53,623 nt of DNA from Deltaproteobacteria bacterium (GTDB lineage: Bacteria > Desulfobacterota > Binatia > Binatales > Binataceae), in the NCBI GenBank assembly GCA_021827495.1, contig JAKAVN010000004.1, forward strand, positions 1-53,623, in the 5' to 3' direction. Positions within the stretch are counted from its first letter, which is position 1; each line of letters begins with the position of its first letter. Below the pieces are notes generated by a model. The model worked only from the letters and a program-made list of their open reading frames with translations. It made no database searches and was not told where the DNA came from. Below are positions 5,140 to 41,406 of this stretch, piece after piece. The position numbers and the translations under genes were made by a program.

Positions 5140-5175
5140 GGAAAGTTTTACCGCGATCAGTCGGTAACGTTTGCC
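5140..5175. promoter_or_regulatory. Candidate enhancer (UAS) pair for a sigma54 activator
   Basis: Two 13-bp imperfect palindromes, ggaaagttttacc (5140-5152) and ggtaacgtttgcc (5163-5175), 23 bp apart and 55-90 bp upstream of a sigma54 promoter. Confidence 0.5.
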
Positions 5176-5227
5176 GAAATTTCGCGCGGGTACACGACAA
5201 GCTCACGCGATTCCACCGGACCGCCGC

Positions 5228-5243
5228 GGGCACGAAGCTTGCC
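5228..5243 (+). promoter_or_regulatory. Sigma54 (-24/-12) promoter of the ExeA-LysM gene
   Basis: gGGCACGaagcTTGCc matches the GGCACG-N4-TTGC consensus with exact GG-to-GC spacing (5229/5241), about 60 nt before ATG 5302. Confidence 0.8.
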
Positions 5244-5301
5244 TCAGTTAGAGCCGACAGCGGCGAGATCGCGACAGACGCGATCGCTCTGTGACGCCCC
5301 C

Positions 5302-6684
5302 ATGTATCATCAGCACTTTGGCCTCAGTGGGCCGCCTTTCCAGTGCACACCGGCGCCCGATGCGTTGTATCTCAGCCACACCCATCGCGAAGCCCTCGCC
5401 GCGCTCGAATGGGGCCTGCTCCATGAGCCCACCGGCTTCACCCTGCTGGTGGGCGAGAGCGGCGTCGGCAAGACCACGCTGGTCTGTTCGATCCTGGCTC
5501 GCGGCCACCACAACGTGCGGGCCGCCTGGGTGACCAATCCCAAGCTCAACTTCGATCAGATGATGCAGGTGGTGATGTCGCAGCTCACTCCCGGCAGGGG
5601 CGGGCAGACCAAGCTCGAGCTGACCCAGGGCTTCGCCAGCCTGCTCAACGATCTTGCGCCGGGCGCGCGCGTCGCGATCATTATCGACGAAGCCCAGAGC
5701 TTGGGCGACGACACGCTGGAGGAACTGCGCCTGCTGTCCAACGCGGACAGCTTTGCCGAGCGCCGCCTGCAAATCATCTTTGTGGGCCAGCCCGAGCTGA
5801 TGGAGCGGCTGGCCAGCCCGGCGATGCACAGTCTGAACCAGCGCATCGGCGCCCGCGCCCTGCTCAAGACGCTGCGGCCGGCCGAAGTGCTCGAGTACAT
5901 CGATTGCCGGCTGCGCGCGAAGGGCCGCTCGGCGCGGAAAATATTTTCCGCCGCCGCGCTCAACTACCTGGTCGCCCACAGCGGCGGAAATCCACGCCGG
6001 GTGAATGTGCTCAGCCACAACTCGATGCTGCAGGGCTACGCGGCGGCGAGCAAAAAGGTCAGCCTGGCGATGCTCAAGCATGCGGTCAGCGAATATGAGG
6101 GCCTGATGAGCGCCAGGAAGGCGCGCACCGGCGGCGGCGAGTCCGCTCGCGGCGCGCGGCCGGGCCGGCGCCTCAGGCTGGCGGCGCTGGCGGTGACGGC
6201 GCTCGCACTGGCCGCCGCCGGCGTCATCCTGTGCTGGTCGCAAGACTGGTTTTCATCCAGTCCATCGCAGGCAGCCATCGGTGCGGTGGCCATCCGGCCC
6301 GCAGCGGAGTCCGTTATAACCGGCCCAAGGATTCCGCTGCGGCCGGTGGCCCCCGCCGTGGACAGCGCTTCCATCAACGTGGGGCTCGAGCCTTCGCGCC
6401 CGTCGATGGAGCCGCCGCGCGGCGCCGCGCCATCCGCAGGCGCGGCGCTTTCCGGCGGCGCCGCGCCGACTAATCACAGCGGCGCAGCCGCCACGACCGC
6501 GCAAGTGAAAAGCATCCAGGTTCGCTACGGCGATTCGCTGTCGAAGATTGCCGCCCGCTACCTGGGATCGGTCGAAGCGCTCGGCGAACTGCGGGAGGCG
6601 AATCCTCATTTGCGTAACATAGATCGGATCTACCCCGGCGAAACGCTGTTCCTTCCACCCACGCAAACGTCGGTAGGTCCTTAG
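5302..6684 (+). CDS. ExeA/GspA-like AAA+ ATPase with TM segment, Pro/Ala linker and C-terminal LysM domain
   Basis: MYHQHFGLSGPPF start typical of ExeA; Walker A GESGVGKT; Walker B IIIDEAQ; FVGQPEL; TM at LAALAVTALALAAAGVIL; LysM IQVRYGDSLSKIAARY...ANPHLRNIDRIYPGETLFLP. Confidence 0.88.
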   Translation: MYHQHFGLSGPPFQCTPAPDALYLSHTHREALAALEWGLLHEPTGFTLLVGESGVGKTTLVCSILARGHHNVRAAWVTNPKLNFDQMMQVVMSQLTPGRGGQTKLELTQGFASLLNDLAPGARVAIIIDEAQSLGDDTLEELRLLSNADSFAERRLQIIFVGQPELMERLASPAMHSLNQRIGARALLKTLRPAEVLEYIDCRLRAKGRSARKIFSAAALNYLVAHSGGNPRRVNVLSHNSMLQGYAAASKKVSLAMLKHAVSEYEGLMSARKARTGGGESARGARPGRRLRLAALAVTALALAAAGVILCWSQDWFSSSPSQAAIGAVAIRPAAESVITGPRIPLRPVAPAVDSASINVGLEPSRPSMEPPRGAAPSAGAALSGGAAPTNHSGAAATTAQVKSIQVRYGDSLSKIAARYLGSVEALGELREANPHLRNIDRIYPGETLFLPPTQTSVGP

Positions 6685-6847
6685 CAGGCACAACGGGGCG
6701 TGGAGTTTCGCGAGACGCTGTTGAAGATGGCGATAGGGCAGATTCCAGCCGCGATTGGCGGCGGGCGGGGCTGCGGCCGGCTTTGAGCACGTGCGCGCGG
6801 CGCGAGCACGCGGGCGCCGCGTTGCGCATTGCCACCGGCGCGGGAGG

Positions 6848-7402
6848 TCACGGCGAGGCCGGCACCAGCTTGGCCGCCAGCACGGCGGCCTTGTCGGCGA
6901 AGCCCGACGCCGCCACGTAGTCGTCTTCGGTCGCGGCCTTGCGGCCGGCCTGCAGAAAATCATTGGCCTGATCGTAGGTGGTGGCACTGTCGGCGTTGAG
7001 CGTGTTGCGGTCGACCTTCGCCAGTTTCGCTCCCGCACGGTCGAGCAGACGCAGAGCGCGGCCCTTGGAAGGGCCGTCGGCCAGCGTGACGCTGGGCCTG
7101 GGACTGGGTTGAGCAGGTGGCGCCGGAGCCGCAACCGCGGCTGGTACGGCGGGATTGGCCGGATGCCGCGTGCGGGTGGTTTCGGCCGTATGCGCATGTT
7201 TAGCGGCTGGCGCAATGCGGCTGCTCTCGCCGCCGGCGCTGGGCGCGGCAGGCGGCCGATAACGCTGGACCGCCGGCGCGGGCGTCGGCGGCGTCATGAA
7301 GCTCGGAATTTGCCAGCTTCCGCCGGGTCCGAAGCATCCCGAAAGCGCCACAGATATTGTTCCCGCCACGGCGGCAGTGCGCGCTACAGACCGACCCTTC
7401 AT
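6848..7402 (-). CDS. Pro/Ala-rich hypothetical lipoprotein with helical C-terminal domain
   Basis: Lipobox ALSGC after a hydrophobic stretch, low-complexity linker, amphipathic helical C-terminus (YDQANDFLQAGRKAA...ADKAAVLAAKL). Lies immediately downstream of the histidine kinase. Confidence 0.7.
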   Translation of the reverse strand: MKGRSVARTAAVAGTISVALSGCFGPGGSWQIPSFMTPPTPAPAVQRYRPPAAPSAGGESSRIAPAAKHAHTAETTRTRHPANPAVPAAVAAPAPPAQPSPRPSVTLADGPSKGRALRLLDRAGAKLAKVDRNTLNADSATTYDQANDFLQAGRKAATEDDYVAASGFADKAAVLAAKLVPASP

Positions 7403-7435
7403 TCCACTTACCAATCCCGCTGCGCGCGGGCAGTC

Positions 7436-9256
7436 TTAGTTGGCGTTTATATCCGATGCCGGCCGCGAGGCGCGATCCTCGAGCGGCAATCGGATGCGCG
7501 CGGAAGTGCCTTGGTTTACCTTGGACGCGACGTCGAGCGTACCACCATGAAGGTCAACCGCGCGCAGTGCCAGGGGCAAGCCCACGCCGTTGCCGTCCTG
7601 CTTGGTGGTGAAATAGAGCTGGAAGATATCGTCCAGATGCTCGGGCGCAATTCCCTGCCCGGTGTCCGAGATGGAAAGCTCCACCCAGCCATCGACCAGC
7701 GCGCTGGCCATGGTCAGCGTGCCCCCCTTGGGCATCGCGTCGATGGCGTTTTGCACGATATTACGCAACGCTTCCATCAGCACCGCATGGTCGGCCTTGA
7801 CGAACGCGGCCGCCGGATCAAGCCGGCATCTGACCTCGATCAGCGGATCGTTCACCCCCTTGGCCACTTCACGCATAAGATCGTTGGCAGCAACCCGCTC
7901 GATTTTCAACTGTCCGGGCCGCATGAAGCGCATCAGCGCTTCGATCACCAGATCGATCCGGCTCATCTCCTCGCGCACCGCGTTGACGCGGGCTTCGACC
8001 GGCCTGGATTGGCGCGCGTCCTGGCTGAGCAGTTCGAGCTCGAGCGTGATCGCGTTGAGCGGATTGCGAATCTGATGGGCGACGCCGGAGAACAGCCCGC
8101 CGAGGCGCGCCAGGCGCTCTGAATTATCGACCACGCTTTCGAGCTGCTGAACCGGATCGAGATCGCGCACGATTACCATCTGCCCGGCGCGCGCGGGATC
8201 GCCGCCCAGCGGAAAGATTGAAACCAGCAGGCGCGACTTGTCCTTGCCGCGGCCTTCCTCGATCGCCACGTCGCGCAGCTCCGCGTTCGCCGCCCGCGCC
8301 GTGCGCACGACGGTGACCAGCGGATGGCGCTCGCCGATCAGCGCGGCGAGCGCCTTGCCCTGCGCGAGGCCGCCGGCCGGAAGTCCAAGGCGGTCCTGCG
8401 CATCGTGGTTGGAGAAGCGCACGATGCCGTCGCGGTCGAGCAACAGCACGGCGTCGTCGATCGAGCGAAAAATGTTGATGAAACGGCCGCGTTCGTCCTC
8501 CCACTGCACCCGGTCGGAGCGGACGCGATGCGACAGCTCGTTGAACTTCCTGGCCAGCGCGCTCAACTCGTCACGGCCGCGGATCAGCAAGTTGCCGGTA
8601 TCGCGGCCTGCGGCCAGCCGTTCAACCCCGGCGGTAATCGCGGCGACCGGCGCCAGCAACAGCGCGCCCGACAGCAGCGCGCCCAGCAGGCTCATCAGGA
8701 TGACCGCGGCCGCGACCAGCAGCACGTCGGCCACCGCGCGGTGAACCTCGGCGGCGACGAGCGCCGTCGACAGGCCGACCTTGATCAGCGCGAACGGCCG
8801 CTGGTTGATTTCGACCGGACTGCTGATCTCGTATACGTGGTCGCCCCACAGCGGACGGATTCGCGCGAGCGGCGACCATTGTTTGGCCGCCCGCTGCAGC
8901 TCCTCGAACGGGCGCGGCGGCGGGACGCTCACCGCATCACCGCTGGTTCCGGCCACCATCTCGCCGCCGAGGGTCACCACTCGCGCGTACACCACGGCCT
9001 TGCCGAAAGCGCGCGAGGAGGAAAGGAAGGCGGCGAGCGATGGATCCTCGCGCAGGCGCGCCACCGGGTCGCCCTGGCTATGCTCCAGCGTGGTACGAAT
9101 CTGCTCGAAGGTCTGGTTGACCAGCACGCTGCCCGAGTCGTTAAGGCTGTCGACCAACACGCGCGTCGCATGGTCGATCTCGGTGGCGCTGACCGCCAGT
9201 ACCGCGAGCACCAGCAGCGGGACGAAGATAGCGGCGATCTTGGTGCGCAGGCCCAT
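7436..9256 (-). CDS. Membrane sensor histidine kinase (2 TM, HAMP, PAS-like, HisKA, HATPase)
   Basis: HAMP (GRDELSALARKFNEL), H-box GVAHQIRNPL, N-box NIVQNAIDAM, G1 DTGQGI, FTTK and G2 GNGVGL. Confidence 0.93.
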   Translation of the reverse strand: MGLRTKIAAIFVPLLVLAVLAVSATEIDHATRVLVDSLNDSGSVLVNQTFEQIRTTLEHSQGDPVARLREDPSLAAFLSSSRAFGKAVVYARVVTLGGEMVAGTSGDAVSVPPPRPFEELQRAAKQWSPLARIRPLWGDHVYEISSPVEINQRPFALIKVGLSTALVAAEVHRAVADVLLVAAAVILMSLLGALLSGALLLAPVAAITAGVERLAAGRDTGNLLIRGRDELSALARKFNELSHRVRSDRVQWEDERGRFINIFRSIDDAVLLLDRDGIVRFSNHDAQDRLGLPAGGLAQGKALAALIGERHPLVTVVRTARAANAELRDVAIEEGRGKDKSRLLVSIFPLGGDPARAGQMVIVRDLDPVQQLESVVDNSERLARLGGLFSGVAHQIRNPLNAITLELELLSQDARQSRPVEARVNAVREEMSRIDLVIEALMRFMRPGQLKIERVAANDLMREVAKGVNDPLIEVRCRLDPAAAFVKADHAVLMEALRNIVQNAIDAMPKGGTLTMASALVDGWVELSISDTGQGIAPEHLDDIFQLYFTTKQDGNGVGLPLALRAVDLHGGTLDVASKVNQGTSARIRLPLEDRASRPASDINAN

Positions 9257-9293
9257 AGCCGGGATCCCCGATCAACGCGCGGCCATCGAGCGC

Positions 9294-10769
<1,476 letters not shown>

Positions 10770-10785
10770 AGGTGACACTCGCGAT

Positions 10786-11094
10786 CTATAGAATGAGGCC
10801 CAGGGCATCGCCGATGAGCCTGAACGGCAACAGGATTATCGTCCCGATCGCGTGCGCCGTTGCGCCCAAGACACTGTCAGGCTCGTTCGACTGGGTCGTG
10901 GTCGTAGTGGTGGTCGTGGTCGGAGCCGGGGAATTTTCGGTTGCCGGATCGCCAGAGTCGGTCGTTACTGCTCCACCGTCGGTCCTGCTCACGCTGGTTG
11001 TCGTCGTGGTTCTTTCGCCGCTCGAACATCCCTGGGCCAGCACAACCGCACAGGATGCCAATGCGGCGGCGAATAACACTGCAAGCCGCTTCAT
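10786..11094 (-). CDS. Small Thr-rich hypothetical lipoprotein
   Basis: SD gaggagga; signal peptide with lipobox LAQGC; runs TTTTTSVS and APTTTTTTTTTQS; hydrophobic C-terminus (IGTIILLPFRLIGDALGLIL). Ends 17 nt before the response regulator start. Confidence 0.75.
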   Translation of the reverse strand: MKRLAVLFAAALASCAVVLAQGCSSGERTTTTTSVSRTDGGAVTTDSGDPATENSPAPTTTTTTTTTQSNEPDSVLGATAHAIGTIILLPFRLIGDALGLIL

Positions 11095-11319: not shown

Positions 11320-11358
11320 TTGACGTGCTCCCGGCCTGACTATACTATCCGTATAGTC
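11320..11358 (+). promoter_or_regulatory. Sigma70-like promoter overlapped by a palindromic operator, directly before the HTH gene
   Basis: TTGACG (11320) -17 nt- TACTAT (11343). The inverted repeat gactatac-N5-gtatagtc (11338-11358) abuts the GTG start at 11359. Confidence 0.6.
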
Positions 11359-11550
11359 GTGACCGGGCGAGAACTCCATTCCATCAGGCGGAAGCTCGCG
11401 CTTACACAAGCTGCCCTGGCCGAGGCTATCGGAGTAACCTCGAACACCGTGGCGCGATGGGAGCGCGGCGAGATGGCGATCTCCGAACCGGCCGCCAGAC
11501 TCCTCCAGAAAATCGCCGCTGAACAGCGGTCGCGGACCGGGAAGAGGTGA
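11359..11550 (+). CDS. XRE/Cro-C1 family helix-turn-helix protein
   Basis: ELHSIRRKLALTQAALAEAIGVTSNTVARWERGE is a canonical HTH_3 pattern. Probable GTG start with no obvious SD. Confidence 0.85.
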   Translation: MTGRELHSIRRKLALTQAALAEAIGVTSNTVARWERGEMAISEPAARLLQKIAAEQRSRTGKR

Positions 11551-11557
11551 GGGCGCT

Positions 11558-11758
11558 ATGGCTTCGATCAAACGGACCATCAGGACGATGCAAGGGCCAG
11601 AATTGCGAATGCCCGGGCGGCTTGATTATTGCCGGATGGGAACCTACGGCCCGCGACGGCGCTTGTTTTTCCAGACCAGGAAGGCTGAGTTGTTCGCGTT
11701 ACCACCGCCCCGGAAACCGGAAAAAAGTGGCCACTCGAACGGTCACGCGGCGAGCTGA
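11558..11758 (+). CDS. Short hypothetical ORF, possibly a remnant of an integrative element gene
   Basis: 66-aa ORF directly after the HTH gene. No recognisable domain. Ends 30 nt before tRNA-Ser. Confidence 0.3.
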   Translation: MASIKRTIRTMQGPELRMPGRLDYCRMGTYGPRRRLFFQTRKAELFALPPPRKPEKSGHSNGHAAS

Positions 11759-11788
11759 AATCGTGTAAGTGCTTGATTTATAAGCCTT

Positions 11789-11875
11789 GGAGGGGTGGCC
11801 GAGCGGTTGAAGGCACCGGTCTTGAAAACCGGCAGCGGCGCAAGTCGCTCGTGGGTTCGAATCCCACCCCCTCCG
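11789..11875 (+). tRNA. tRNA-Ser (anticodon TGA)
   Basis: Acceptor stem GGAGGGG/CCCCTCC plus discriminator G; D-arm TGGCCGAGCGGTTGAAGG; anticodon stem ccggt-cttgaaa-accgg; long variable arm agcggc-gcaa-gtcgct; T-loop GGTTCGAATCC. CCA not encoded. Confidence 0.97.
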
Positions 11876-12042
11876 TTCCTGAGTCCTCGACCTTGAGAAG
11901 TATCCGGCGAAGTCTGCGGCGCTTCGTGATGGATTCATGCTTGTACTCGCGCGCGATGCGCGCGCTCGCCAAGGCCAGTTTCGCTCCGCTCCACGTTATC
12001 CAGGCAATTGATGCAAAGATGCGGGATCGCGTAAGCCATGGC

Positions 12043-12417
12043 TCAAGCAATCGCGGTCGTCAGCAGAACGATGCTTTCCTCGAGGGCTTCAAGTTCGTGA
12101 ACGACGTTACGGTCAAGCGCCCCCATGCTCCCGGACGAGAGTTTCTTATCTTCGCTTTCAGCGGAGAAGCGCACCGAGCCGGATAGCACGTGAACCGCGA
12201 TTGGCCCTCGCGTGCGATGTTTTGCCAGCCGCGCGCCCTTTTTGAGCACCATCAGCAGAATGTTGAGGGCGTCGTCCTTAACCAGGCTCACCGCCAGACG
12301 ATCTTCCGACGACCACTCCGGCTTTGCTTTAAGGCGGGCGGCCTCGTCCATAACGTGGAATGACACCATCCCACCCGCAGACGGCCGGAGCGCTTGCCTA
12401 CTGCTTTGTTCGGTCAT
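12043..12417 (-). CDS. Cupin domain protein
   Basis: Cupin pattern LKKGARLAKHRTRGPIAVHVLSGSVRF...VVHELEALEES with conserved His residues. Start ATG 12417. Confidence 0.8.
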   Translation of the reverse strand: MTEQSSRQALRPSAGGMVSFHVMDEAARLKAKPEWSSEDRLAVSLVKDDALNILLMVLKKGARLAKHRTRGPIAVHVLSGSVRFSAESEDKKLSSGSMGALDRNVVHELEALEESIVLLTTAIA

Positions 12418-12632
12418 ATCCGTGCCGCCTGAATTCCTGCGTTGCTCGCGTCCACCCAGCAAACCGCCATCATCGGCCCACGGCAGCAGGCCGCGCTGGT
12501 CGAGCCACAGTCATCCGAAATGGTTATCAGCGATCCAACGCCTGCATCCGGCGAAGCACGGCCGAGGACAACCGCCAGCGTCGACGCCTTGACAGCTTGA
12601 TTATCTAATCGTGCAGGTTCTCCGGTTGCCAT
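12414..12632 (-). CDS. Small Cys-containing hypothetical protein
   Basis: 72-aa ORF with a GGGGGTGA SD-like site. Its stop overlaps the cupin start (ATGA coupling). No known domain. Confidence 0.3.
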   Translation of the reverse strand: MATGEPARLDNQAVKASTLAVVLGRASPDAGVGSLITISDDCGSTSAACCRGPMMAVCWVDASNAGIQAARI

Positions 12633-12799
12633 GATTCACCCCCGTTCAGCACGGATGCCGCAGCGCGTTTTCAGAGCTCCGCGAGCGGAAAAACGTCTGG
12701 TTCACGAAGTTCCTGACAACAACTCACCGACAGAACTTTCTGCTCCCGCCGCGCGCGCATCGGTCCACCCTCGACCAGGCCTCCAACGAGCATTCCTGC

Positions 12800-13102
12800 C
12801 TACAGCCAACCGAGCTGGCGTTTCCCCTTTTCGGAGATCATCCGGGGCGACCATGGTGGCTCCCAGACCAGTTCGACGTTTACCTTCTCGACCTCATCGC
12901 ACTGGCTCAGAATCGCCTCGCGCGCCTCCTCGGTCAGATACGAATGCATGGGGCACGCCGGCGTCGTCATCGTCATCGCGATGCGCACGTCGCCGCCTTG
13001 AATTTCCGTGCTATAGACGAGGCCAAGATCGACGATGTTGACGCCGACCTCCGGATCGTTGACTCCACGCAAGGCCTGCAGGATGTCCGCTTGACTCGCC
13101 AT
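12800..13102 (-). CDS. Metal-sulfur cluster assembly factor (SufT/PaaD, DUF59)
   Basis: ALRGVNDPEVGVNIVDLGLVY...MTMTTPACPM...ELVWEPPWSPRMIS is the DUF59 signature. Confidence 0.92.
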   Translation of the reverse strand: MASQADILQALRGVNDPEVGVNIVDLGLVYSTEIQGGDVRIAMTMTTPACPMHSYLTEEAREAILSQCDEVEKVNVELVWEPPWSPRMISEKGKRQLGWL

Positions 13103-13153
13103 GATTATTCTCCGAGCTTGAAGCTCCGGCGTCGTCACCGGAAGCAGCGCGCG

Positions 13154-13879: not shown

Positions 13880-13945
13880 GACACATTTCCTTTCCCGGCC
13901 TTAACGCGCCAGGCTGGACCTGCGCGCTTGACGGGCCGCCGCTAT

Positions 13946-13968
13946 AAGATGTATTCACTATACAGCTT
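13946..13968. promoter_or_regulatory. NsrR-type operator between the divergent hemerythrin operon and the Rrf2 regulator
   Basis: aaGATGTATtcactATACAGCtt matches the known gATGYAT-N5-ATRCATc NsrR box with one mismatch. A TTGACG hexamer lies at 13928. Confidence 0.75.
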
Positions 13969-14059
13969 TTAAGACGATGGTCAAGAACAACAAGGTCTTC
14001 AGCCACGCGGAAGAGAGGGACTTTTTGTCGCTCATCCAGGCCTTTGAAACCTAGCCGCC

Positions 14060-26413: not shown

Positions 26414-26430
26414 ATGAAAAGGAGCCATTC

Positions 26431-32912: not shown

Positions 32913-32963
32913 ACCGTTGCCGTTGGTGAACCTTCTCTGCACGGTCAAGAAAAGTCGCCGCGA

Positions 32964-34223
32964 ATGGTAGTTATTTCAAACGGCTTCAATAAGTTTCATA
33001 TGGCGGTCGCCGCCGCTGAGGCCCAACAGCGAAACATCCTGAGCTCCTTTATTACCGGCGCCTATCCGACCCCGGGAGTTCGTTGGCTATCGTGTATCAT
33101 GGGACTCAGATGGAATCGGAAATTCGCACGTTTCATCGCTCGCGCCGAGGCAATAAACGACCAGCACATTAAGCCGGCATGGCGCTCTGAAAGCCTTTAC
33201 GAGTTTGCGAGGATCGCTCGGCGAGCTGCTCCGGGTTTCGCTGAAATGTTAGAAGCGAGGTCCTTCCGGATCTACGGTCGGCAAGCGGTCCGGCCCGTCA
33301 TTGAAGCGGCCCGTCGTGGCGCCCGAATATACCACTATCGAGCCGGTTTTGGCGGTGACTCAGCGAAAGTTGCTGCGAACCTTGGAATGGTTACAGTCTG
33401 CGATTACTCCATGGCGCACGCGGCCACGCTGCCTCGACTTCTTGCTGACAGCGATCCACCGGCCGGCGGTTCCCCAATTCCACTCAATCGCATATGGCTT
33501 GAGATCGTTGCGGACGCGGAGCAAGCCGATGTCGTTTTGGTTAATTCCGATTTTGTTAAAAGCACGTTCCTTGAACAAGGATGGGACCCAGCGCGTCTGC
33601 GAGTGATTTATTTGGGAGTTGATGATGCGTTCATCGACTGTCTGCCTCTACGGGTCCCTCCTCCTGACGTCTCCGGCCCATTGCATCTGTTGTTTGCAGG
33701 AGGTTTCGAGCGACGAAAAGGTGCCGATCGGGTGATTGCCGCCTTGAAGCTCTTGAGCGACGTTCCTTGGACGCTGGAGATTGCCGGCGTCGTTGCTCCA
33801 GACATGCGGCGGTGCCGCGATTTCCTAAAAGACCCGCGGGTTTCAGTGACCGGCTGGCTTGCGCGCGACAAACTGGCGGCGCGGATGGCCGCCGCGGAAG
33901 TCTTCGTGTTTCCCTCCCGGGCCGAAGGCTCAGCTCGCGTCGTGTTCGAGGCGCTTGCGGCCGGTTGCTACGTCATCACCACACTCAACGCCGGCTCCAT
34001 CGTCGAGGACGGAGTTCATGGCCGGCTCATTCCTCCGGGCGATCCGGATCAGCTCGCCGCTGCAATTCGGGACGCAGCGGCGAAACGACGTGGATTGGCG
34101 GAAATTGCGCGCCGCAACGCGGCACTCGTGCGGGAGAAGTACCGGCAGCGAGACTATGGCGACAAGCTCGTGGCTCTCTACGAGGATCTGCTAATATCCA
34201 AAAGGCCGGGTGAAGCCGCATGA
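32964..34223 (+). CDS. Glycosyltransferase family 4
   Basis: VLVNSDFVKSTF, LLFAGGFERRKG and FVFPSRAEGSARVVFEALAAG (EX7E motif). Confidence 0.9.
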   Translation: MVVISNGFNKFHMAVAAAEAQQRNILSSFITGAYPTPGVRWLSCIMGLRWNRKFARFIARAEAINDQHIKPAWRSESLYEFARIARRAAPGFAEMLEARSFRIYGRQAVRPVIEAARRGARIYHYRAGFGGDSAKVAANLGMVTVCDYSMAHAATLPRLLADSDPPAGGSPIPLNRIWLEIVADAEQADVVLVNSDFVKSTFLEQGWDPARLRVIYLGVDDAFIDCLPLRVPPPDVSGPLHLLFAGGFERRKGADRVIAALKLLSDVPWTLEIAGVVAPDMRRCRDFLKDPRVSVTGWLARDKLAARMAAAEVFVFPSRAEGSARVVFEALAAGCYVITTLNAGSIVEDGVHGRLIPPGDPDQLAAAIRDAAAKRRGLAEIARRNAALVREKYRQRDYGDKLVALYEDLLISKRPGEAA

Positions 34224-35518
34224 ACGCGAGTGCTCGCGCGGCAGGTTATCCCGGGGAAGGCGAGCTGCAGGCCGCATCCGCGCCGTGGGGAGGACGGCTG
34301 GTCGACCTGCTGATGGTCTTGATTCCGGCTTCCGAGTGTATTCAGTTCCACGTGGTCGGCACGCTGTTCGCGCCCGATATTTTGTTACTCGCGTTGTTGC
34401 CCTTCGTCGTCGCCTCGAAGGCTCAACTGCTGCGCCTAAGGCTGCCACGCACCTTTCTCCTTTGGGGCGCGGCATGGTTGTTCGTGCAGATGGCGACCGA
34501 CCTTATTCGTTCGACGCCCCTTGATGACTATCTGCGCGGCTGGGCAATGATAGCCTTCACCTTGACCAATTTCACGGTCCTGTACGTACTGCTCTATCAG
34601 AACCGCCGCCGGATCGTTCTATACGCATTCGGGCTTGCCAGCGGCGGCGTGCTAAGTTACTTCCTCAGCCCGGGCATGTTTGCCGCCGGAGATCCTTGGA
34701 AGTTCGGCTACGGCTATGGGATAACCTTGGTCATAGTCTTGCTCGCCACCCGCGCCGCCGGCCGCTCGAGGACTCTGACCGCGGCGGTACTCATAGCGCT
34801 GGCCGCCGTGCTCAACCTTTACAACGGTTTTCGGAGCCTGGCGGGCGTATGCTTCCTGGCGTCCGCCTACCTGCTGGTGCAGCGGCTCGCGCGTGTTCGG
34901 CGCGAGCGCGGGATGCGCGTGAGCTTCGCCGGAGCGCTCGCGGCGTATGCGATACTGGCCCTGTCGAGCGCCGGCGTGCTCCGGCTATACGAGTACTGCG
35001 CCGGCAACGGGATGCTCGGCTATGAAGCGTGGAACAAATATGAGGTCCAATCATCGGGCCGCTATGGCATATTGATCGGCGGCCGCGCCGACTTTCTGAC
35101 CGGGACGGAGGCCGTGCTGGATTCGCCTATCGTCGGGCATGGCTCGTGGGCTAAGGATTGGCGCTATGCGTCCCGGACTGAGTCGGTGATGGCGGATCTC
35201 GGCTATGGAGTTCAGGACACCCCCGAGTCCTGGACCATTCCTTCGCATTCATATCTGCTAAGCGCGTGGATCGACGCGGGCGTTGTTGGCGCGATCTTTT
35301 GGCTGTGGGTGCTGTCACTTTCCTTGCGCGTGCTGGCGCGGCTGTATGCCACGGCGGAGCCGCTGGCGCCGCTGGTAGCTTTTCTGGCTATCGGCTTTAT
35401 CTGGGACGTACTTTTTTCTCCGTTCGGTGCTACCGCAAGATTAAGTGTTTCCTTTGTCGTGGTCACGCTGATGTGGTTCCTCGAGACGCATCCGCGCTTC
35501 GACGGACCTGCCGCTTAA
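34220..35518 (+). CDS. wzy: Putative polysaccharide polymerase (Wzy) / O-antigen-ligase-like membrane protein
   Basis: About 11 TM segments; GFRS motif; periplasmic loop with GRAD...SPIVGHG and PSHSYLLSAWIDAGVVG. Located among the glycosyltransferases. Confidence 0.7.
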   Translation: MNASARAAGYPGEGELQAASAPWGGRLVDLLMVLIPASECIQFHVVGTLFAPDILLLALLPFVVASKAQLLRLRLPRTFLLWGAAWLFVQMATDLIRSTPLDDYLRGWAMIAFTLTNFTVLYVLLYQNRRRIVLYAFGLASGGVLSYFLSPGMFAAGDPWKFGYGYGITLVIVLLATRAAGRSRTLTAAVLIALAAVLNLYNGFRSLAGVCFLASAYLLVQRLARVRRERGMRVSFAGALAAYAILALSSAGVLRLYEYCAGNGMLGYEAWNKYEVQSSGRYGILIGGRADFLTGTEAVLDSPIVGHGSWAKDWRYASRTESVMADLGYGVQDTPESWTIPSHSYLLSAWIDAGVVGAIFWLWVLSLSLRVLARLYATAEPLAPLVAFLAIGFIWDVLFSPFGATARLSVSFVVVTLMWFLETHPRFDGPAA

Positions 35519-35535
35519 ACACCCCCGGCTGCACC

Positions 35536-36348
35536 ATGCGAATCTCGATTGTCACTATTTCCTACAACCAGGGGCGCTTTCTAGAGCAGGCGATCCGCTC
35601 GGTCCTCGAACAGGCCTACGACGACGTCGAATACATAGTGGTGGACCCCGGCTCAACTGACGGCAGCCGGGCGATCATAGACAAATACCAGCACAGGCTT
35701 GCGGCTTCTGTTCTCGAACCGGATCGGGGACCGGCGGATGGCCTCAACAAGGGCTTTGCCCGCGCTACAGGCGAAATCTACGGCTATCTTAACGCCGATG
35801 ACTATTTCCTGCCTGGTGCGCTGAAGCGGGCTGCCCGCTGCTTCCGTGAACACGACGTGGAGGTAATCGTTGGGCACTCCATTATCGTCGACCAGCTCGA
35901 CCGCGTCCGCCGTTATCACTATTCCGACCGCTTCAATCTTACCGCTTACGCCTATGGACAGGCGCAGCTGATGCAAGCATCGACGTTTTTTAAAGGCTCA
36001 GCCTTTGAAAGGCTGGGAGGGTTCAACCCGGAGAACAGGTCCAGTTGGGACGGCGAGTTGCTGGTCGAACTTGCGCTCGCCGGCGCACGCTTTGCAACCG
36101 TGAATCAATTGTTCAGTGCGTTCAGGATCTATCCCGATAGTATAAGCGGATCCGGCAAACTGCGGGCTCTTCTTTTAAGCGACCATGAGCGCATCTTCGC
36201 GAAGATCATGCGGCGCGAGAGAAGGTCGTATGATGATGTGGCCGGAGCATGGTGGCGCATGCGCAAGCATCTGTTAAACCCGCGAAACCTGGTTCAACGG
36301 CTGCTGTGGGGGGCGGTGTGCGGCGGGCGGCGGGAGTTGGCCGCGTAA
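35536..36348 (+). CDS. Glycosyltransferase family 2
   Basis: MRISIVTISYNQ, IVVDPGSTDGS, DRGPADGLNKG and YLNADD (DxD). Start ATG 35536. Confidence 0.92.
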   Translation: MRISIVTISYNQGRFLEQAIRSVLEQAYDDVEYIVVDPGSTDGSRAIIDKYQHRLAASVLEPDRGPADGLNKGFARATGEIYGYLNADDYFLPGALKRAARCFREHDVEVIVGHSIIVDQLDRVRRYHYSDRFNLTAYAYGQAQLMQASTFFKGSAFERLGGFNPENRSSWDGELLVELALAGARFATVNQLFSAFRIYPDSISGSGKLRALLLSDHERIFAKIMRRERRSYDDVAGAWWRMRKHLLNPRNLVQRLLWGAVCGGRRELAA

Positions 36349-36357
36349 AAGGCATCG

Positions 36358-37596
36358 ATGGTGATGCGGGTGTTGCATATCATCCCGAGTCTCGCGGCGC
36401 GCGACGGAGGGCCAACCAAAGCAGTGGTCGAGATGTGCCGCGAACTCGTCCGCCGCGGCCATCAGGCTGCCATCTACACTACCAATCTGGATGGGGCCGG
36501 CGAACTGGATGTTCCGCTCGAAGTGCCGGTCAACGTTATGGGGGCGCAGGTAAGGTACTTTTCCGTGGGCGCGAGCAAGTACTATAAAATCTCGAGTCGT
36601 CTGGCGGCGGCTTTACGTAGTGAGATACCCAATTGCAGCGTCGTCCATATTCACTCGCTGTATCAATTTCCTTCGACCATCGCAGCCCATTATTGCCGGC
36701 GCTTTCGGGTTCCCTACCTGATACAGCCACACGGCGTCCTCGATCCATTCATGTACCGCCATCATAGGTTGCGCAAATGGTTGTACGAAATTCTGATCGA
36801 GCGGCGCAATTTGAAAGGTGCGGCGGCGGTTCACTTCACTACTCGCGACGAGATGGCCCTTGCCCGTTCGCACGGCTTGATCTTCCGCAGCGCCGTCGTG
36901 CCGCTCGGCGTGGGCCTGGAGCAGGACGGCACCGCCGACGGCGCGCTGCTTCGCCGGGCATTTCCAGAAACCTTCGGCAAGCGGCTCATTTTGTTTTTTG
37001 GCAGGCTGAACTTCAAAAAGGGGCTCGACATTCTGGCTCATGCGTTTGGTGAGGTCGGCCGGCGATGCGACGATGTTCATCTGGTTATCGGCGGGCCCGA
37101 CAATGACGGCTACAGCCGGGAGGTCAAGGATTGGCTGCGCGGCGAGGGAGTGCTCGCAAAGACCACTTTCGCTGGTATGCTCCTTGGCGAGCTCAAAGCC
37201 GCGACGCTGGCTGCGGCTGATCTATTTGTGCTTCCCTCGTACACCGAGAACTTCGGCATCGCGGTGGTCGAGGCGATGGCGGCCGGATTGCCGGTGGTGA
37301 TTTCCAACAAGGTCAACATTTGGCGCGAGGTCGAAGAGGCGGGCGCGGGCTTGGTGGTAAATCCGGAGGCGCATGAAGTAGCCGGTGCAATTTTGAAATT
37401 GCTGGAAGAGCCGACGCTGGGGAAAAAGATGGGCGAGCGCGGTAGGCGTTTGGCTCGCGAGAGCTTTTCATGGGATGCGGCTGGCGATCAGCTCGTCGCG
37501 CTCTACACAAGGATTATCTCCGGGCAACCCCACGCCGGCGCGGCGGCTCCGTTTCCGGCTCCTGCCAGACAACAACCGCCGCGCCAGATGCCATGA
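36358..37596 (+). CDS. Glycosyltransferase family 4
   Basis: GGPTKAV, VHIHSLY, PHGVLDP, FFGRLNFKKGLD and LPSYTENFGIAVVEAMAAG. Confidence 0.92.
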   Translation: MVMRVLHIIPSLAARDGGPTKAVVEMCRELVRRGHQAAIYTTNLDGAGELDVPLEVPVNVMGAQVRYFSVGASKYYKISSRLAAALRSEIPNCSVVHIHSLYQFPSTIAAHYCRRFRVPYLIQPHGVLDPFMYRHHRLRKWLYEILIERRNLKGAAAVHFTTRDEMALARSHGLIFRSAVVPLGVGLEQDGTADGALLRRAFPETFGKRLILFFGRLNFKKGLDILAHAFGEVGRRCDDVHLVIGGPDNDGYSREVKDWLRGEGVLAKTTFAGMLLGELKAATLAAADLFVLPSYTENFGIAVVEAMAAGLPVVISNKVNIWREVEEAGAGLVVNPEAHEVAGAILKLLEEPTLGKKMGERGRRLARESFSWDAAGDQLVALYTRIISGQPHAGAAAPFPAPARQQPPRQMP

Positions 37597-38537
37597 AAGT
37601 CCCTCTGTCCTTCATAATTCCGGCCCGCAACGAAGAGCGCAACATCCGCGCTGCCATCGAATCGGTCGCCGATTGGGCTGATCAGTTCTTCGTTCTCGAT
37701 TCGTATAGTGAAGATCGCACCATAGAGATTGCCGAGGAGATGGGCGCGCAGATTGCGCGCAGGCGCTTCGACAATTTCTCCGCGCAAAAGAACTGGGCGC
37801 TCGACAATCTGCCCTTGCGCAATGAATGGGTGTTTTTTCTCGACGCCGACGAGCGCGTCCCGTTTGGCCTCAGACGCGAGCTCAAACACTTACTCTCGCA
37901 TCCCGCCGGTCAATTGGATGGGTACTATGTAGGCATGAAGCACCTGTTTATGGGAGCGACCGTCAATCACGGAGGATGGTATCCGAACGATAGACTGTTG
38001 CTATTCAAGCACCGGCTCGGGCGATACGAGCCTCGCATTGTCCACGAGCATCTTATCCTGCAAGGCAAGACAGGGAGGCTGGCAAACCTTTTGATTCATG
38101 ACGACCGAAAGGGCATTCACCGCTATTTTGAGCGGCACAACGCGTACTCCACTATGGAGGCGCTTGAGGCGCATCGATATCTCCATAGGGATCAGGCTGG
38201 AGTCTCGCTCAGGGCAAGTCTACTGGGCGCCGCCCCGGAGCGCCGGCGTTTGCTCAAGCAGTGGGCGTATAGACATCTCCCGTGCCGGCCACTGTGCAAG
38301 TTTCTGTGGGCATATGTTCTTGAGCGGGGATTCCTGGACGGCCGCGTCGGCCTGCGCTACTGCCTGCTTCAGTCGTTCTATGAATATCAAATTAGCCTGA
38401 AGCTTCTGGAGCTGCGGACCGACCCGGAATCGCCGATGCTCAAATATGGGTCTGCTGACAGGGCGGCGGCCGCGTCCGATGGCGGCGCGGATGACATCAG
38501 TGCGCAAGGAGTGGGCGCCGCGGCTATGCATCGATGA
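37593..38537 (+). CDS. Glycosyltransferase family 2
   Basis: IPARNEERNI, VLDSYSEDRT, QKNWAL, FLDADER and IVHEH. ATGA-coupled start at 37593. Confidence 0.9.
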   Translation: MKVPLSFIIPARNEERNIRAAIESVADWADQFFVLDSYSEDRTIEIAEEMGAQIARRRFDNFSAQKNWALDNLPLRNEWVFFLDADERVPFGLRRELKHLLSHPAGQLDGYYVGMKHLFMGATVNHGGWYPNDRLLLFKHRLGRYEPRIVHEHLILQGKTGRLANLLIHDDRKGIHRYFERHNAYSTMEALEAHRYLHRDQAGVSLRASLLGAAPERRRLLKQWAYRHLPCRPLCKFLWAYVLERGFLDGRVGLRYCLLQSFYEYQISLKLLELRTDPESPMLKYGSADRAAAASDGGADDISAQGVGAAAMHR

Positions 38538-39427
38538 ATAGCCATCTGTACAGGGTTCGTGAACGATTTCATCCCTTAAACCATCTGTGGGGGCATCGGC
38601 TGAGCCGCAGGATATTGCGGGCGATAGACATTCCGGTATGGGCCAAGCTCCCCGGCGTGGACGGAAAGGTAAGAGTGCGGCTCGTTCGCCACGCCAGTGC
38701 TTTTTTGCTGCCGGGCGGAGTGGAACCCGGCATGGCCGCGCTATTTTGCGCAATCGCAAAGAGGATTGGGATTCGGTCTTTGTGGGACGTAGGCGCGAAC
38801 GTCGGCTATTATAGCTGGCTAACCAAGAGCATCGCTCCCGCAGCCGCGGTTCGGATGTTCGAGCCGGAGCCTGACAATATCGTGCTCATCCACCGGACGA
38901 TGCGCCGCATGGCGCTCAGCGAGATGACCTTGCGCGAGGTGGCGGTTAGCGACACGCACGCGCAGCAGTCCTTCGTGCGTGACGAGATATCGGGTTCAAC
39001 CGGCGGGATCCAGCAGAATGGAAGCACCTTTTCGTTGCGGCAATGGGGAGTGGCTGGAAAAACCGTAACAGTCAATACGGTGTCGCTCGACGAGGAGCGG
39101 GATCGCGTTGGACCGGTGGACCTGATCAAAATAGACGTCGAGGGTCATGAAGAGGCGGTGATCCGTGGTGGCCGCGGGACGATCGAGCATGACCAGCCGA
39201 TTGTGATTTTCGAGTGCTTTCACGGAGGCGCCGAGATAATCGGTTTCCTCTCATCGCTCCGCTACTGGGTCGGCGACGCGGAACGGATGAATGACGGCAT
39301 GGCCGCGGCCAGTAATTTCCTGGCTCTGCCGGAACGATATCGCTCAAGGCTCGAGGCGCTAAAGCAGAGCTGGGCCGCTGAGATGGAGCGGAGGCCGGCC
39401 CGCTATCACGCGAGAATATATCGATGA
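38534..39427 (+). CDS. FkbM family methyltransferase
   Basis: WDVGANVGYYS, FEPEPDN, DLIKIDVEGHE and PIVIFE motifs. Confidence 0.9.
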   Translation: MNSHLYRVRERFHPLNHLWGHRLSRRILRAIDIPVWAKLPGVDGKVRVRLVRHASAFLLPGGVEPGMAALFCAIAKRIGIRSLWDVGANVGYYSWLTKSIAPAAAVRMFEPEPDNIVLIHRTMRRMALSEMTLREVAVSDTHAQQSFVRDEISGSTGGIQQNGSTFSLRQWGVAGKTVTVNTVSLDEERDRVGPVDLIKIDVEGHEEAVIRGGRGTIEHDQPIVIFECFHGGAEIIGFLSSLRYWVGDAERMNDGMAAASNFLALPERYRSRLEALKQSWAAEMERRPARYHARIYR

Positions 39428-40257
39428 CGCCGCATGGAAGGTCACAGGCCGGGGCGGCGGCCGGGCGTCCCACGCTGGAGCGAGCGGAAGTTGACGGCGC
39501 CTGGTCGCGGCAGCGGCATTTCTACGAGGAAGAGTGCGACCCCGAGTTCGAGATCGCCCGTCCCCACAACTGCGGACGCCTCTATCAGTTCCTGATCGAG
39601 TATAAGTTTCAGGCCGGCTTGGAGGTGCTTGGCCTAAAGCTCGCGGGGCGCTCGGTGCTCGAGCTGTGTTGCGGCTCGGGCATGATGTCGGAGAAATTTG
39701 CGCGCGCCGGCGCCACAGTCACCGGGATCGATTTCTCCCCGGCCGCGATCGCCCGCGCGCGCGAACGCGCCCGGCGCTACCGGTTTGCCGCCCGTTTCCT
39801 CGTTGCCGATGCTGAGAACCTCGCCTTTCCCGGCCGCAGCTTTGACATAGTCGCCGTCCACGACGGCCTTCATCATCTTGGCGAGCCGCGCCAGGCAATA
39901 CGTGAGATGGCGCGTGTTGCACGTGAGGCCGTACTGATTCTCGATCCGGCCCGTGCCGCACTTACGAGAGTAGCAATACGACTGGGTATCGCCGCCGAGA
40001 TGGAAGAGGCCGGCAATGAGGTTAAGCGCCTGGTGCCCGGCGAGGTCGCCACGGCTGTGCGGGAGCAGGGTTACGGCAACGTCCGTTGGCGGCGGACTCT
40101 CATGTACTATCCGCATCAGCCGTCCGGATGGTTCCGGTGGTTCGAGCGCACGCCGGCGTTTGCCGCCTTTCGCGCGGCCTTTTGGTGCACGGATGTTGTG
40201 TTGGGCCGATGGGGGAACAAGCTGGCGCTCGGCGCGCGTCGGGCTGCGCCAGACTGA
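39424..40257 (+). CDS. Class I SAM-dependent methyltransferase
   Basis: VLELCCGSG, VTGIDFS, DAENLAFPGRSFDIV and LHHL motifs. Confidence 0.88.
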   Translation: MTPHGRSQAGAAAGRPTLERAEVDGAWSRQRHFYEEECDPEFEIARPHNCGRLYQFLIEYKFQAGLEVLGLKLAGRSVLELCCGSGMMSEKFARAGATVTGIDFSPAAIARARERARRYRFAARFLVADAENLAFPGRSFDIVAVHDGLHHLGEPRQAIREMARVAREAVLILDPARAALTRVAIRLGIAAEMEEAGNEVKRLVPGEVATAVREQGYGNVRWRRTLMYYPHQPSGWFRWFERTPAFAAFRAAFWCTDVVLGRWGNKLALGARRAAPD

Positions 40258-40338
40258 GCTAATAACTGAGCGTTGAAATAGTGTTTTACCAGCACCCGGC
40301 ATCGCTAACGGCAGATCCCCCGCTGATTATTCCGTGTT

Positions 40339-41109
40339 ATGTCAGCTAGAGGCAAGTCCTTGGTCAGCAACCTCGAATGGAAACGGTGGGGCGCGGCGGA
40401 TCCATTGTGGGCTGTCGCCGCCTGGGCAGGCAAGCAGCGTAATGGCCCCGAACCTTGGAATGAAACGGACTTTTACGCGCTTGGGTACTCGGATTGGCTG
40501 GATTTCCGCAGGCGTTGGGAGCGGTATGGTGTGGACCGCACGAGCTGTGCCGAGATCGGTTGCGGGGCCGGCAGAATTACAGCTCAATTGGTTCAGTATT
40601 TCGGTACGGTCCACGGCTTGGATGTCTCCGAGGGGATGCTGGATTTCGCCAGGTGCCGGATCGCCGATGCGCGGTTTTACCTGACCGATGGGATGCGCAT
40701 TCCCTTGGATGATGTTTCAATAACCGCTGTTTTCTCGAGCCATGTGCTGCAGCATCTCGATTCTCCCGAAGATTCGATTCCCATGTTCGCCGAGATTTAT
40801 CGCGTGTTGGTTCCCAATTGTACCATGATGATTCACTTGCCCATCTATAATTGGCCATCAGGGCGCGGACTGTTCGAGCGCTTGTTTGTTGCCCGCCAAT
40901 GGTTGGCCCGGCAAAAGGCCAGAGTGGATCGCGCGCGGGGTAGGCCGATGATGAGAGGCACTTTCTATGAGGCCGGTTGGCTGGCGGAGATTCTCAAGAA
41001 ACGGGGGTTTGTGAATGTGGAGTTCCTGAGCTTTCCGGTGTCTTCGAATGGCGGCCTGCATTCGTTTGTTCTAGCCAGGAAGCCCGCCGGAGATGGCAGC
41101 CAGGCGTGA
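40339..41109 (+). CDS. Class I SAM-dependent methyltransferase
   Basis: AEIGCGAGRI, GLDVSEGML and VFSSHVLQHL motifs. Confidence 0.88.
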   Translation: MSARGKSLVSNLEWKRWGAADPLWAVAAWAGKQRNGPEPWNETDFYALGYSDWLDFRRRWERYGVDRTSCAEIGCGAGRITAQLVQYFGTVHGLDVSEGMLDFARCRIADARFYLTDGMRIPLDDVSITAVFSSHVLQHLDSPEDSIPMFAEIYRVLVPNCTMMIHLPIYNWPSGRGLFERLFVARQWLARQKARVDRARGRPMMRGTFYEAGWLAEILKKRGFVNVEFLSFPVSSNGGLHSFVLARKPAGDGSQA

Positions 41110-41364
41110 GCGCGAGCGAATGTGTTTACGCGCTTGGCGCCATCAGCGCCTCGATCTCGAAAATGACGAAGCGACGCTGTTCAAGTCCGCCGCGCTCGGC
41201 GTCGAGAAAGTGGCCCATCGGTCCATGGTTGTTGACCTGAACAAGCTGCTCGCCGCGCCGCGGACCGGAGCGCACACGGTCGCCCCGACCTACAATCTGG
41301 TGACGAACGGAGTATTGACCTTTGTAAGCGTCCACTAATCGCGAGCATTGGTCCGATTGGATTA

Positions 41365-41406
41365 CGGGCGTGGGGCGCGTTGGCGCTCCACGCCCGGTTT
41401 GTTTTC
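41365..41406 (+). terminator. Intrinsic terminator at the end of the polysaccharide operon
   Basis: 14-bp stem cgggcgtggggcgc / gcgctccacgcccg with a 4-nt loop, followed by gtttgttttc. Confidence 0.8.

Follow-up and report, generated by a model that had tools for sequence, protein, structure and literature searches.

In a 53.6-kb stretch of DNA from an uncultured member of the Binataceae (candidate phylum Binatota; contig JAKAVN010000004.1, analysed over its whole length and called the window below), a two-component system and an ExeA-like ATPase gene are found in the neighbourhood of a long polysaccharide operon, which is headed by the gene of an RfaH-like NusG paralog and by an ops element. 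A preliminary description of this DNA had joined these features in one circuit, running from a lipoprotein-flanked two-component system through two sigma-54 promoters to RfaH/ops control of the glycan operon. The features split into two modules, because relatives keep them apart and because the motifs upstream of the two promoters differ. We regard it as rather probable that module A (5138-11094, with the two-component system and the ATPase gene) and module B (16745-41396, with the NusG paralog and the polysaccharide operon) are two independent sigma-54-dependent modules, which are neighbours only in this genome.

Orthologs of the kinase (60-85% identity) were found at 14 loci of Binataceae. 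The order FIST, acyl-CoA dehydrogenase, ExeA-like gene, then convergent lipoprotein, kinase and regulator genes was kept in 13 of these loci, whereas no NusG paralog, Wza or Wzc gene was present within about 8-10 kb of the two-component system in any of the 14 relatives. The loci of the relatives reach about 8.4 kb beyond the regulator, and the NusG paralog of the window is 6.2 kb from it. The genes located between 11 and 17 kb in the window were likewise in none of the 14 two-component-system loci. Of the synteny expected from the preliminary description, the regulator/kinase/exeA block is thus shared and its extension to rfaH, wza and wzc is not: the adjacency of the regulator to the glycan operon is unique to the window (0/14). 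Synteny with the relatives stops just past 11094. In the window a tRNA-Ser gene follows about 0.7 kb further on; among the 10 relatives whose flank past the regulator was scanned, seven had tRNA-Met and none tRNA-Ser.

Both sigma-54 promoters had been predicted before. The element of the ExeA-like gene (GGGCACGAAGCTTGCC, 5228-5243, plus strand) and that of the NusG paralog gene (TGGCATAAAAGCTGCT, 16887-16902, plus strand) have GG-N10-GC intact, with transcription starts predicted near 5254 and 16913, respectively. The match to the consensus is not significant in itself, the number of two-mismatch -24/-12 matches in the window being 23 against 24.7 expected, and for this reason the case for both elements rests on position and conservation. 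They are the sole intergenic, correctly oriented two-mismatch matches in which GG and GC are intact, and both are conserved in orthologous loci, which upholds the prediction. At the ExeA-like gene, the element GGCAyG-N4-(T/A)TGC was kept in 13 of 13 orthologous loci, the surrounding spacer being variable. The 16887 promoter is conserved in five distinct orthologous sequences; the relative L035, whose paralog is 77% identical, has TGGCGCAAAAGTTGCT at the same distance to the start codon, and in a clade with 65% protein identity (L027, L029 and L032) the element reads TGGTCyGrAAGTTGCT.

Upstream of these elements the two promoters have little in common. Two boxes precede the ExeA-like promoter on the plus strand: a distal one at 5138-5154 (TGGGAAAGTTTTACCGC), centred about 108 nucleotides (nt) 5' of the predicted start, and a proximal one at 5161-5177 (TCGGTAACGTTTGCCGA). 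With a matrix made from 26 ExeA-promoter boxes they scored 23.2 and 21.3 bits, respectively, and both were found in 13 of 13 loci. They share the consensus GGkAAsyTTTrCCG, which lies 5' of every ExeA-like promoter; the proximal box, which in every locus is some 51 nt away from the -24 element, is an imperfect palindrome (GGyAA-N3-TTrCC). Beyond 5138 and 5161, no position of the window exceeded 10 bits, and in the 1.1 Mb of fetched loci boxes of at least 19 bits were confined to ExeA-like promoters. Linkage and conservation suggest that the boxes are the enhancer of the regulator encoded at 9294-10769 and that the ExeA-like gene is its target. We know of no regulator site that GGyAA-N3-TTrCC matches. 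The DNA-binding helix region of the regulator is identical in both orthologs that were aligned (L001 and L010), whose loci carry boxes at the ExeA-like promoter only; an altered DNA specificity of the window regulator is not supported, as this stretch is unchanged.

Some further features of the ExeA-like upstream region were observed. Most ExeA-like promoters have a short conserved motif, (G/A)ATTCC, about 20-25 nt 5' of their -24 element (5195-5215 in the window); it may be the site of a bending protein or a third contact. The leader is about 57 nt long in the window (5244-5301) versus about 125-315 nt in the relatives, 11 of 12 of which (L006 being the exception) have a leader element of about 95 nt that the window lacks. 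In most of these 11 the element is closed by the helix GGCCCGGAAGC/GCTTCCGGGCC (for example at L013:10408-10536 and L005:13651-13780, minus strand). A structured RNA was tried as an explanation and not adopted: the closing helix is kept, but only 3 of its 19 pairs are supported by covariation, and no Rfam family matches it. At the gathering threshold, Rfam models found only tRNAs in the window and four loci, and the leaders of both modules match no known RNA family.

The region 5' of the NusG paralog gene carries a different conserved motif, the palindrome GCCATAAATTTGCC followed by a GCCAT half-site (16745-16769, plus strand), about 130 nt 5' of the -24 element. It is kept in L027, L029 and L032 as GsCAyAAAwTTGsC-N6-9-GCCAy, and its halves vary together (GGCA...TGCC in L027, GCCA...TGGC in L029). 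The exact pattern occurred 5' of NusG paralogs in six loci. Apart from these, L067 has one chance match within a coding sequence, and all two-component-system loci lack the pattern; the ExeA boxes and the palindrome were never found in one locus and are thus mutually exclusive. When the ExeA-box matrix was run over the 452 nt 5' of the NusG paralog gene, the best score was 2.2 bits, which 20% of random windows equalled. The similar boxes that had been reported at both promoters were therefore not confirmed: their likeness reduces to TTTGCC, in place of which the relatives carry TTGGCG or TTGCCG. Activators are encoded near the paralog in L027 (392 amino acids, aa) and L029 (508 aa), and their N-terminal domains and DNA-binding helices are other than those of the window regulator. 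We infer that 16745-16769 is a candidate site for an activator other than the product of 9294-10769. An 8-bp inverted repeat, CTCCTCCG...CGGAGGAG (16900-16927), which spans the predicted start of the 16887 promoter and is partly kept in L035, may be an operator.

The genes of the window were mapped from an open reading frame (ORF) listing, codon-position GC content and scans with Pfam and NCBIfam models. The regulator of module A (9294-10769, minus strand) has a receiver domain, a Sigma54_activat AAA+ domain with Walker A (GDSGTGKE) and, as seen in its translation, GAFTGA, and a Fis-type helix-turn-helix (HTH) of the HTH_8 family. It is the sole enhancer-binding protein encoded in the 53.6 kb, and, as described earlier, it lies with its adjacent kinase between the two promoters. 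In the kinase (7436-9256, minus strand), two membrane helices enclose a periplasmic domain of about 147 aa, and HAMP, PAS, HisKA and HATPase domains follow. The regulator scored 383.8 with the PrsR model (TIGR02915; cut-off 502.6) and 417 with AtoC (cut-off 714); the kinase was nearest to the AtoS and ZraS models, and the PrsK model (TIGR02916) matched its core only, with 73.2 bits against a cut-off of 300. As to the lipoproteins said to flank the system, the one encoded 3' of the kinase (6848-7402, minus strand; lipobox LSGC, last gene of the regulator-kinase operon) was present in all 14 relatives and matches no Pfam or other known family, whereas the small Thr-rich one encoded 5' of the regulator (10786-11094, minus strand) was found only in the window and L011 and is not a conserved part of the module.

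The ExeA/GspA-like ATPase (5302-6684, plus strand, 460 aa) consists of a cytoplasmic AAA_22 domain, one membrane helix (293-311), a Pro/Ala-rich linker and a C-terminal LysM domain. Its orthologs are 57-75% identical; 12 of them are 343-381 aa long, without LysM, and end 50-80 residues past the membrane helix, so that the LysM tail (window 6400-6684) is specific to the window in the comparison with L001-L013. TIGR03015 is the best match of the ATPase, yet at 197 bits it is below the cut-off of 324.5. In the proposed mechanism of module A, the periplasm-sensing kinase would phosphorylate the NtrC-type activator, probably with help from the co-transcribed lipoprotein; the activator would bind the two GGyAA-N3-TTrCC boxes, about 85 and 108 nt 5' of the start site, and open the sigma-54 promoter of the membrane-anchored ATPase, which in this genome appears to have gained its peptidoglycan-binding LysM tail. 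The co-regulated ExeA-LysM protein of the preliminary description is thus retained as a likely target of the two-component system and given up as co-regulated with the glycan operon, because the two promoters carry different motifs and the adjacency of system and operon is unique to the window.

The first gene of module B codes for the NusG paralog (17029-17562, plus strand, 177 aa). Its N-terminal (NGN) domain scored 52.1 bits with PF02357 (gathering score 22.2). Among the models for specialised paralogs those of RfaH scored best (TIGR01955, 83.4 against a cut-off of 144.5; NF006534, 65.4 against 124), followed by UpxY (NF033644, 55.9 against 100) and LoaP (NF033641, 41 against 125); all of these, and the NusG model as well, were below cut-off. 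In the AlphaFold2 model the N-terminal domain (predicted local distance difference test, pLDDT, about 90) superposes on RfaH at 1.7-2.2 Å. The C-terminal domain is modelled as helices (128-134 and 138-149) and not as a beta-barrel, but with a pLDDT of 38-66, and the full-length superposition on RfaH (Foldseek) was poor, at 8-9 Å. The residues with which E. coli RfaH reads ops are K10, H20, R23, Q24 and R73. K10 and R73 are named for RfaH in PMC7593976, as are the autoinhibition residues E48, I93 and F130. In an alignment to PDB 2oug, I93 and F130 were kept in the paralog and E48 was replaced by A; among the five ops-contact residues only K10 was retained. The protein called an RfaH paralog earlier is thus a NusG paralog that scores nearest to RfaH, below the RfaH cut-offs, and orthology with RfaH is not supported.

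An exact ops element, GGCGGTAGCTTG, lies at 17875-17886 on the non-template (plus) strand, 82 nt 5' of the next gene. It is the sole exact match to the pattern searched (GGCGGTAGnnTG) in 53.6 kb, in agreement with the earlier report of an ops heading the operon, and from the base composition the chance of an exact ops (10-base match) in the 405-nt leader was calculated to be about 8e-4. The relatives with the same layout have GGCGGTAGCGTG (L035, in which ops is kept) and GGCGGCAGCTTG (L034). Compared with L035, the leader has two conservation peaks, at 17710-17759 (88% identity) and at the ops block (84%), with 60-75% in the flanks. The noncoding 17710-17759 block is as conserved as the adjoining coding DNA (about 80-90%) and could act as a promoter within the leader or as an RNA element. 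Four copies of GGCTAwA/GGCTAAC, 16-19 nt apart, were noticed at 17620-17680, in the 5' half of the leader, which is less conserved. Exact ops elements were also found in L067 and L068, a clade independent of that of the window, where the order is MarR-like gene, NusG paralog, exact ops 95-105 nt 3' of it and ABC-2 exporter gene. The core 8-mer GGCGGTAG was only weakly enriched 3' of homologs of the paralog (3 against 0.9 expected, P = 0.07), so only the full 12-mer pattern is informative; the three downstream matches (L035, L067 and L068) all fit the NNTG part of the pattern as well. Most homologs of the paralog have no ops.

From these elements we would picture module B as follows. A different activator, bound to the palindrome at 16745-16769, would fire the 16887 promoter, and the RfaH-like paralog would be the first product of the transcript. 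When RNA polymerase crosses the ops at 17875 the paralog would load there, ops-dependent loading being the most likely mechanism here, and would then suppress pausing and Rho termination over about 23.5 kb, to the terminator at 41365. The predicted stacking of initiation control on elongation control is borne out in so far as the closest relatives (L034 and L035) keep both the sigma-54 promoter of the RfaH-like paralog and ops, and sigma-54 control stacked on a self-encoded RfaH-like factor and ops is plausible; the neighbouring two-component system is not supported as its input.

Downstream of ops, 18 genes on the same strand (17968-41109), with a largest intergenic gap of 228 nt, lead to an intrinsic terminator (41365-41396, plus strand; a stem of 14 pairs, 12 of them G-C, then the T-rich tail GTTTGTTTTC), so that the operon ends where it had been said to end. 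The first gene codes for a secreted CarboxypepD_reg-domain protein with a Gly-rich hydrophobic tail (17968-18486), and the other 17 belong to a Wzx/Wzy-type pathway: Wza (18574-19833, Poly_export/SLBB), the Wzc tyrosine autokinase (19861-22236; TIGR01007, 173 against a cut-off of 108), a Wzy_C/O-antigen-ligase-like protein with TPR repeats (22284-25094) and the biosynthesis genes (25151-41109). The latter are, in order, a GT4 glycosyltransferase, an NAD epimerase, the priming phosphoglycosyl transferase (27493-28908; TIGR03025, 332 against 295.55), an 11-helix membrane protein, a Wzx-type flippase (30518-31876, Polysacc_synt), a methyltransferase, GT4, an 8-helix membrane protein that is a possible polymerase, GT2, GT4, GT2 and three methyltransferases. 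All elements of the pathway are thus present: priming transferase, flippase, Wzy_C protein, polymerase-like membrane protein, Wza and Wzc. GC content is 63-66% in the export half of the operon and 58-61% in its distal third (32000-42000; methyltransferases, glycosyltransferases and the putative polymerase), which fits a swapped type-specific cassette. The CarboxypepD_reg gene is directly 3' of the paralog also in L027, L029, L032, L034 and L035; paralog and secreted protein are invariably paired in this order, also at loci without polysaccharide genes downstream, and in L032 the pair is beside GAF-PAS kinases and KaiB/KaiC genes.

That the locus is PEP-CTERM-like, as had been proposed, was not supported, since the PrsR, PrsK and TIGR03015 models and those for PEP-CTERM export (TIGR03027, 83 against 180), kinase (TIGR03018, 141 against 231) and ligase (TIGR03097, 25 against 188) all scored below their cut-offs. 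Models outside this group (AtoC, AtoS, EpsE, TIGR01005 and TIGR03025) scored at least as high for each protein except the ATPase. Family scans and a tail regular expression found no exosortase, PrsT or PEP-CTERM tail in the 53.6-kb window, as the preliminary description had stated for exosortase and PEP-CTERM genes. The one match of the tail expression over all ORFs, in an 86-aa ORF without coding quality, was rejected. We consider the PEP-CTERM system of PMC1569441 an analogy, with no family assignment.

Four other readings of the window were weighed. An XrtA/PEP-CTERM polysaccharide system whose exosortase lies outside the window would account for the weak matches to PrsR, TIGR03015, pepcterm_export, pepcterm_TyrKin and PEP_O_lig_1 and for a gene mix like that of the loci in PMC1569441, but with every PEP-CTERM-specific model under its curated cut-off, models of other systems equal or better except for the ATPase, a HAMP-PAS kinase unlike PrsK, and 53.6 kb lacking exosortase, PrsT and PEP-CTERM tail, we consider it extremely improbable. 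The single circuit, in which the regulator 9294-10769 activates both promoters and one envelope signal reaches the ATPase, the RfaH-like factor and the glycan operon, has more in its favour: the genes are close together in the window, no other enhancer-binding protein is encoded there, TTTGCC stands 5' of both promoters, and ExeA-like ATPases go with polysaccharide loci in XrtA systems (description of TIGR03015). In addition, in L012, the most divergent ortholog of the two-component system, which has neither the ExeA-like gene nor the boxes, a convergent polysaccharide cluster (L012:12585-21802; an 859-aa Wzy_C protein, UDP-glucose dehydrogenase, GT4, flippase and priming transferase) lies directly past the lipoprotein, in place of the ExeA-like gene. 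Nevertheless, the adjacency is kept in none of the 14 relatives, the boxes are at random level at the second promoter, where a different palindrome is conserved and TTTGCC is lost in relatives, the two motifs never share a locus, and about 5.8 kb, with unrelated genes of lower GC (Rrf2, hemerythrin/DUF2249, DUF59-like and cupin), an aldo-keto reductase gene and a tRNA gene, stand between the two-component system and the 16887 promoter. Together these leave one circuit distinctly improbable, and two separate modules the preferred reading. Because the two-component system of L012 abuts another polysaccharide cluster, module A may have a looser functional tie to envelope polysaccharide.

The two remaining readings concern the working of module B. 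The sigma-54 promoter might serve the paralog only, with the polysaccharide genes transcribed from a promoter of their own in the leader, perhaps at 17710-17759, and the paralog acting at ops. In favour of this are the length of the leader, its conservation peak 5' of ops and a precedent of this type in RfaH of Salmonella Typhi; in addition, in the 65%-identity clade the spacing between the paralog and the next gene is 3-90 nt, with no ops, which makes the leader look like an inserted, separately evolving unit. However, neither a consensus sigma-70 promoter nor a plus-strand terminator 3' of the paralog gene was detected in a scan of 16500-18100, and a second -24/-12 element was likewise not found; TTGTTA-N17-TTTCAT is a weak match, read by eye. 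Two transcription units are thus a possibility that we rate well below a single one. We hold it for somewhat less likely still that recruitment takes place elsewhere than at the ops match, through another RNA or DNA signal, as for LoaP and UpxY, or that the paralog acts in trans on other targets. The replacement of four contact residues (H20 by Q, R23 by L, Q24 by S, R73 by S) would agree with this, as would the scarcity of ops among the homologs and the weak 8-mer enrichment. In the RfaH-ops structure T6 is a base read by RfaH, and L034, the closest relative, has a T6C change. On the other side stand the low chance of a match in the leader, the position of ops within a local conservation peak, the agreement of the L035, L067 and L068 matches with NNTG, and the same arrangement in the independent L067/L068 clade. 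Several of the points just given, namely the altered contact residues, the T6C change, the leader block that could be a separate promoter of the operon and the L012 cluster, count against the two modules as we describe them. To these must be added that the elements of module B are backed by 3 to 5 independent sequences only, that ops and polysaccharide genes are both missing from the 65%-identity clade, where the paralog is accompanied by the CarboxypepD_reg gene alone, and that the window sequence was present in DNA runs only, three metatranscriptomes of the same study yielding nothing but short, spurious alignments with the AAA+ core and the tRNA.

In a survey of 94 loci encoding homologs of the paralog, many were located 5' of Wza, Wzc or priming transferase genes, and in several unrelated clades -24/-12-type elements were found 5' of the paralog. 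In L098, L105, L115 and L120 an activator or receiver gene is immediately 5' of the paralog gene with a -24/-12-type element between them; L082 has two activator genes and no detected element, and L038 and L079 have an element and no such neighbour gene. These arrangements suggest a recurrent design of sigma-54 and NusG paralog across lineages. Sigma-54 is broadly tied to envelope polysaccharide (PMC3162934). As a tentative generalization, which we put forward with more doubt than the modules themselves, the design may be a feed-forward switch in cis, in which an activator sets initiation and the transcript's own first product ensures completion of 24 kb; it would recur in uncultured soil lineages (L038, L079, L082, L098, L105, L115 and L120), and the Binatota paralogs would read ops without the residues used by E. 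coli RfaH. If they do, ops recognition would therefore be independent or ancestral in Binatota.

The window has a GC content of 63%, and its sequence is present in mine-drainage metagenomes. Metabolic genes occupy 144-4810 (plus strand), 5' of module A. Past module A lie tRNA-Ser(UGA) (11788-11876, plus strand), a block of 59% GC with the cupin, DUF59-like, hemerythrin/DUF2249 and Rrf2 genes (about 12.0-14.5 kb, both strands) and the aldo-keto reductase gene (15524-16576, plus strand). The stretch 11320-15500, which has 59% GC and is beside tRNA-Ser, also includes an XRE/MqsA-like HTH gene, and no gene of this region is in the equivalent flank of the relatives. An insertion of 11-41 kb at the tRNA was considered and is not supported, as the window's genes at 41-53 kb are not next to the regulator in relatives either. 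Just 3' of the terminator two ORFs (41478-42905) have no family match; the first is lipoprotein-like (LILGAC) and rich in Thr, Ser and Gly.

Adjacency in one genome had suggested a circuit of four layers, and the comparative data split it into two ordinary regulons. With an activator, two enhancer boxes and one target gene, module A offers a testable set for an uncultured phylum. In module B, an RfaH-like factor with a canonical ops occurs outside Proteobacteria and is preceded by a sigma-54 promoter. This module could throw light on the evolution of ops recognition and on the way in which control of initiation and of elongation are combined for costly envelope polysaccharides.

Among known systems, PrsK/PrsR/PrsT resembles the window in its sigma-54 activator and kinase, in a two-motif upstream region (activator site and -24/-12 element) and in a soil or sediment organism with polysaccharide genes nearby (PMC1569441). 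The window differs in that its proteins miss the PrsR and PrsK models, that PrsT, exosortase and PEP-CTERM targets are absent from it and that the motif is another one. With NtrBC, AtoSC and ZraSR module A shares a regulator of receiver, AAA+ (GAFTGA) and Fis-type HTH domains paired with a HisKA kinase, and two dyad boxes 85-110 nt 5' of a -24/-12 promoter. In contrast to these systems, every equivalog cut-off is missed, the predicted target is an ExeA-like ATPase and a conserved lipoprotein is predicted to be co-transcribed. The ATPase is built like ExeA/GspA of Aeromonas and Vibrio and like the TIGR03015 ATPase, with an AAA_22 domain in the cytoplasm, a single membrane helix and a tail in the periplasm, and as in ExeA/GspA the tail ends in a peptidoglycan-binding domain, here LysM. 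The corresponding domain of ExeA is of the ExeA type, which differs from LysM. Unlike for ExeA/GspA, no ExeB/GspB partner or secretin gene was found in the window, and the orthologs of the relatives are without any peptidoglycan-binding domain.

The closest parallels of module B are enterobacterial RfaH/ops and the paralogs encoded within polysaccharide loci. Like the former, it has a NusG paralog nearest to RfaH, with K10, I93 and F130 retained, and a canonical 12-mer ops, which lies on the non-template strand within the 5' leader of a long operon for polysaccharide. The sigma-54 promoter 5' of the factor's gene also has a counterpart in Salmonella Typhi, where transcription of rfaH is reported to be RpoN-dependent (Bittner et al. 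2002, as cited in PMC11448354; see also Bittner et al. 2004). In contrast to enterobacterial RfaH, whose gene is unlinked, the gene of the factor heads the operon on which it would act; the factor lacks H20, R23, Q24, R73, E48 and the HTTT motif and falls short of the RfaH cut-off. Its host is a member of the candidate phylum Binatota, whereas about 95% of RfaH proteins are reported to be in Proteobacteria (Wang et al. 2020). From UpxY of Bacteroides fragilis the paralog differs in missing the UpxY model score, in having an enterobacterial-type ops as candidate recruitment signal and in its sigma-54-type promoter. RfaH-like genes lie inside Shewanella polysaccharide operons, with comparable UpxY genes in Bacteroides (PMC7593976), and it is with UpxY and the Shewanella 'CL7' genes that module B shares a NusG paralog placed first in a polysaccharide locus and presumably acting in cis (PMC7593976).

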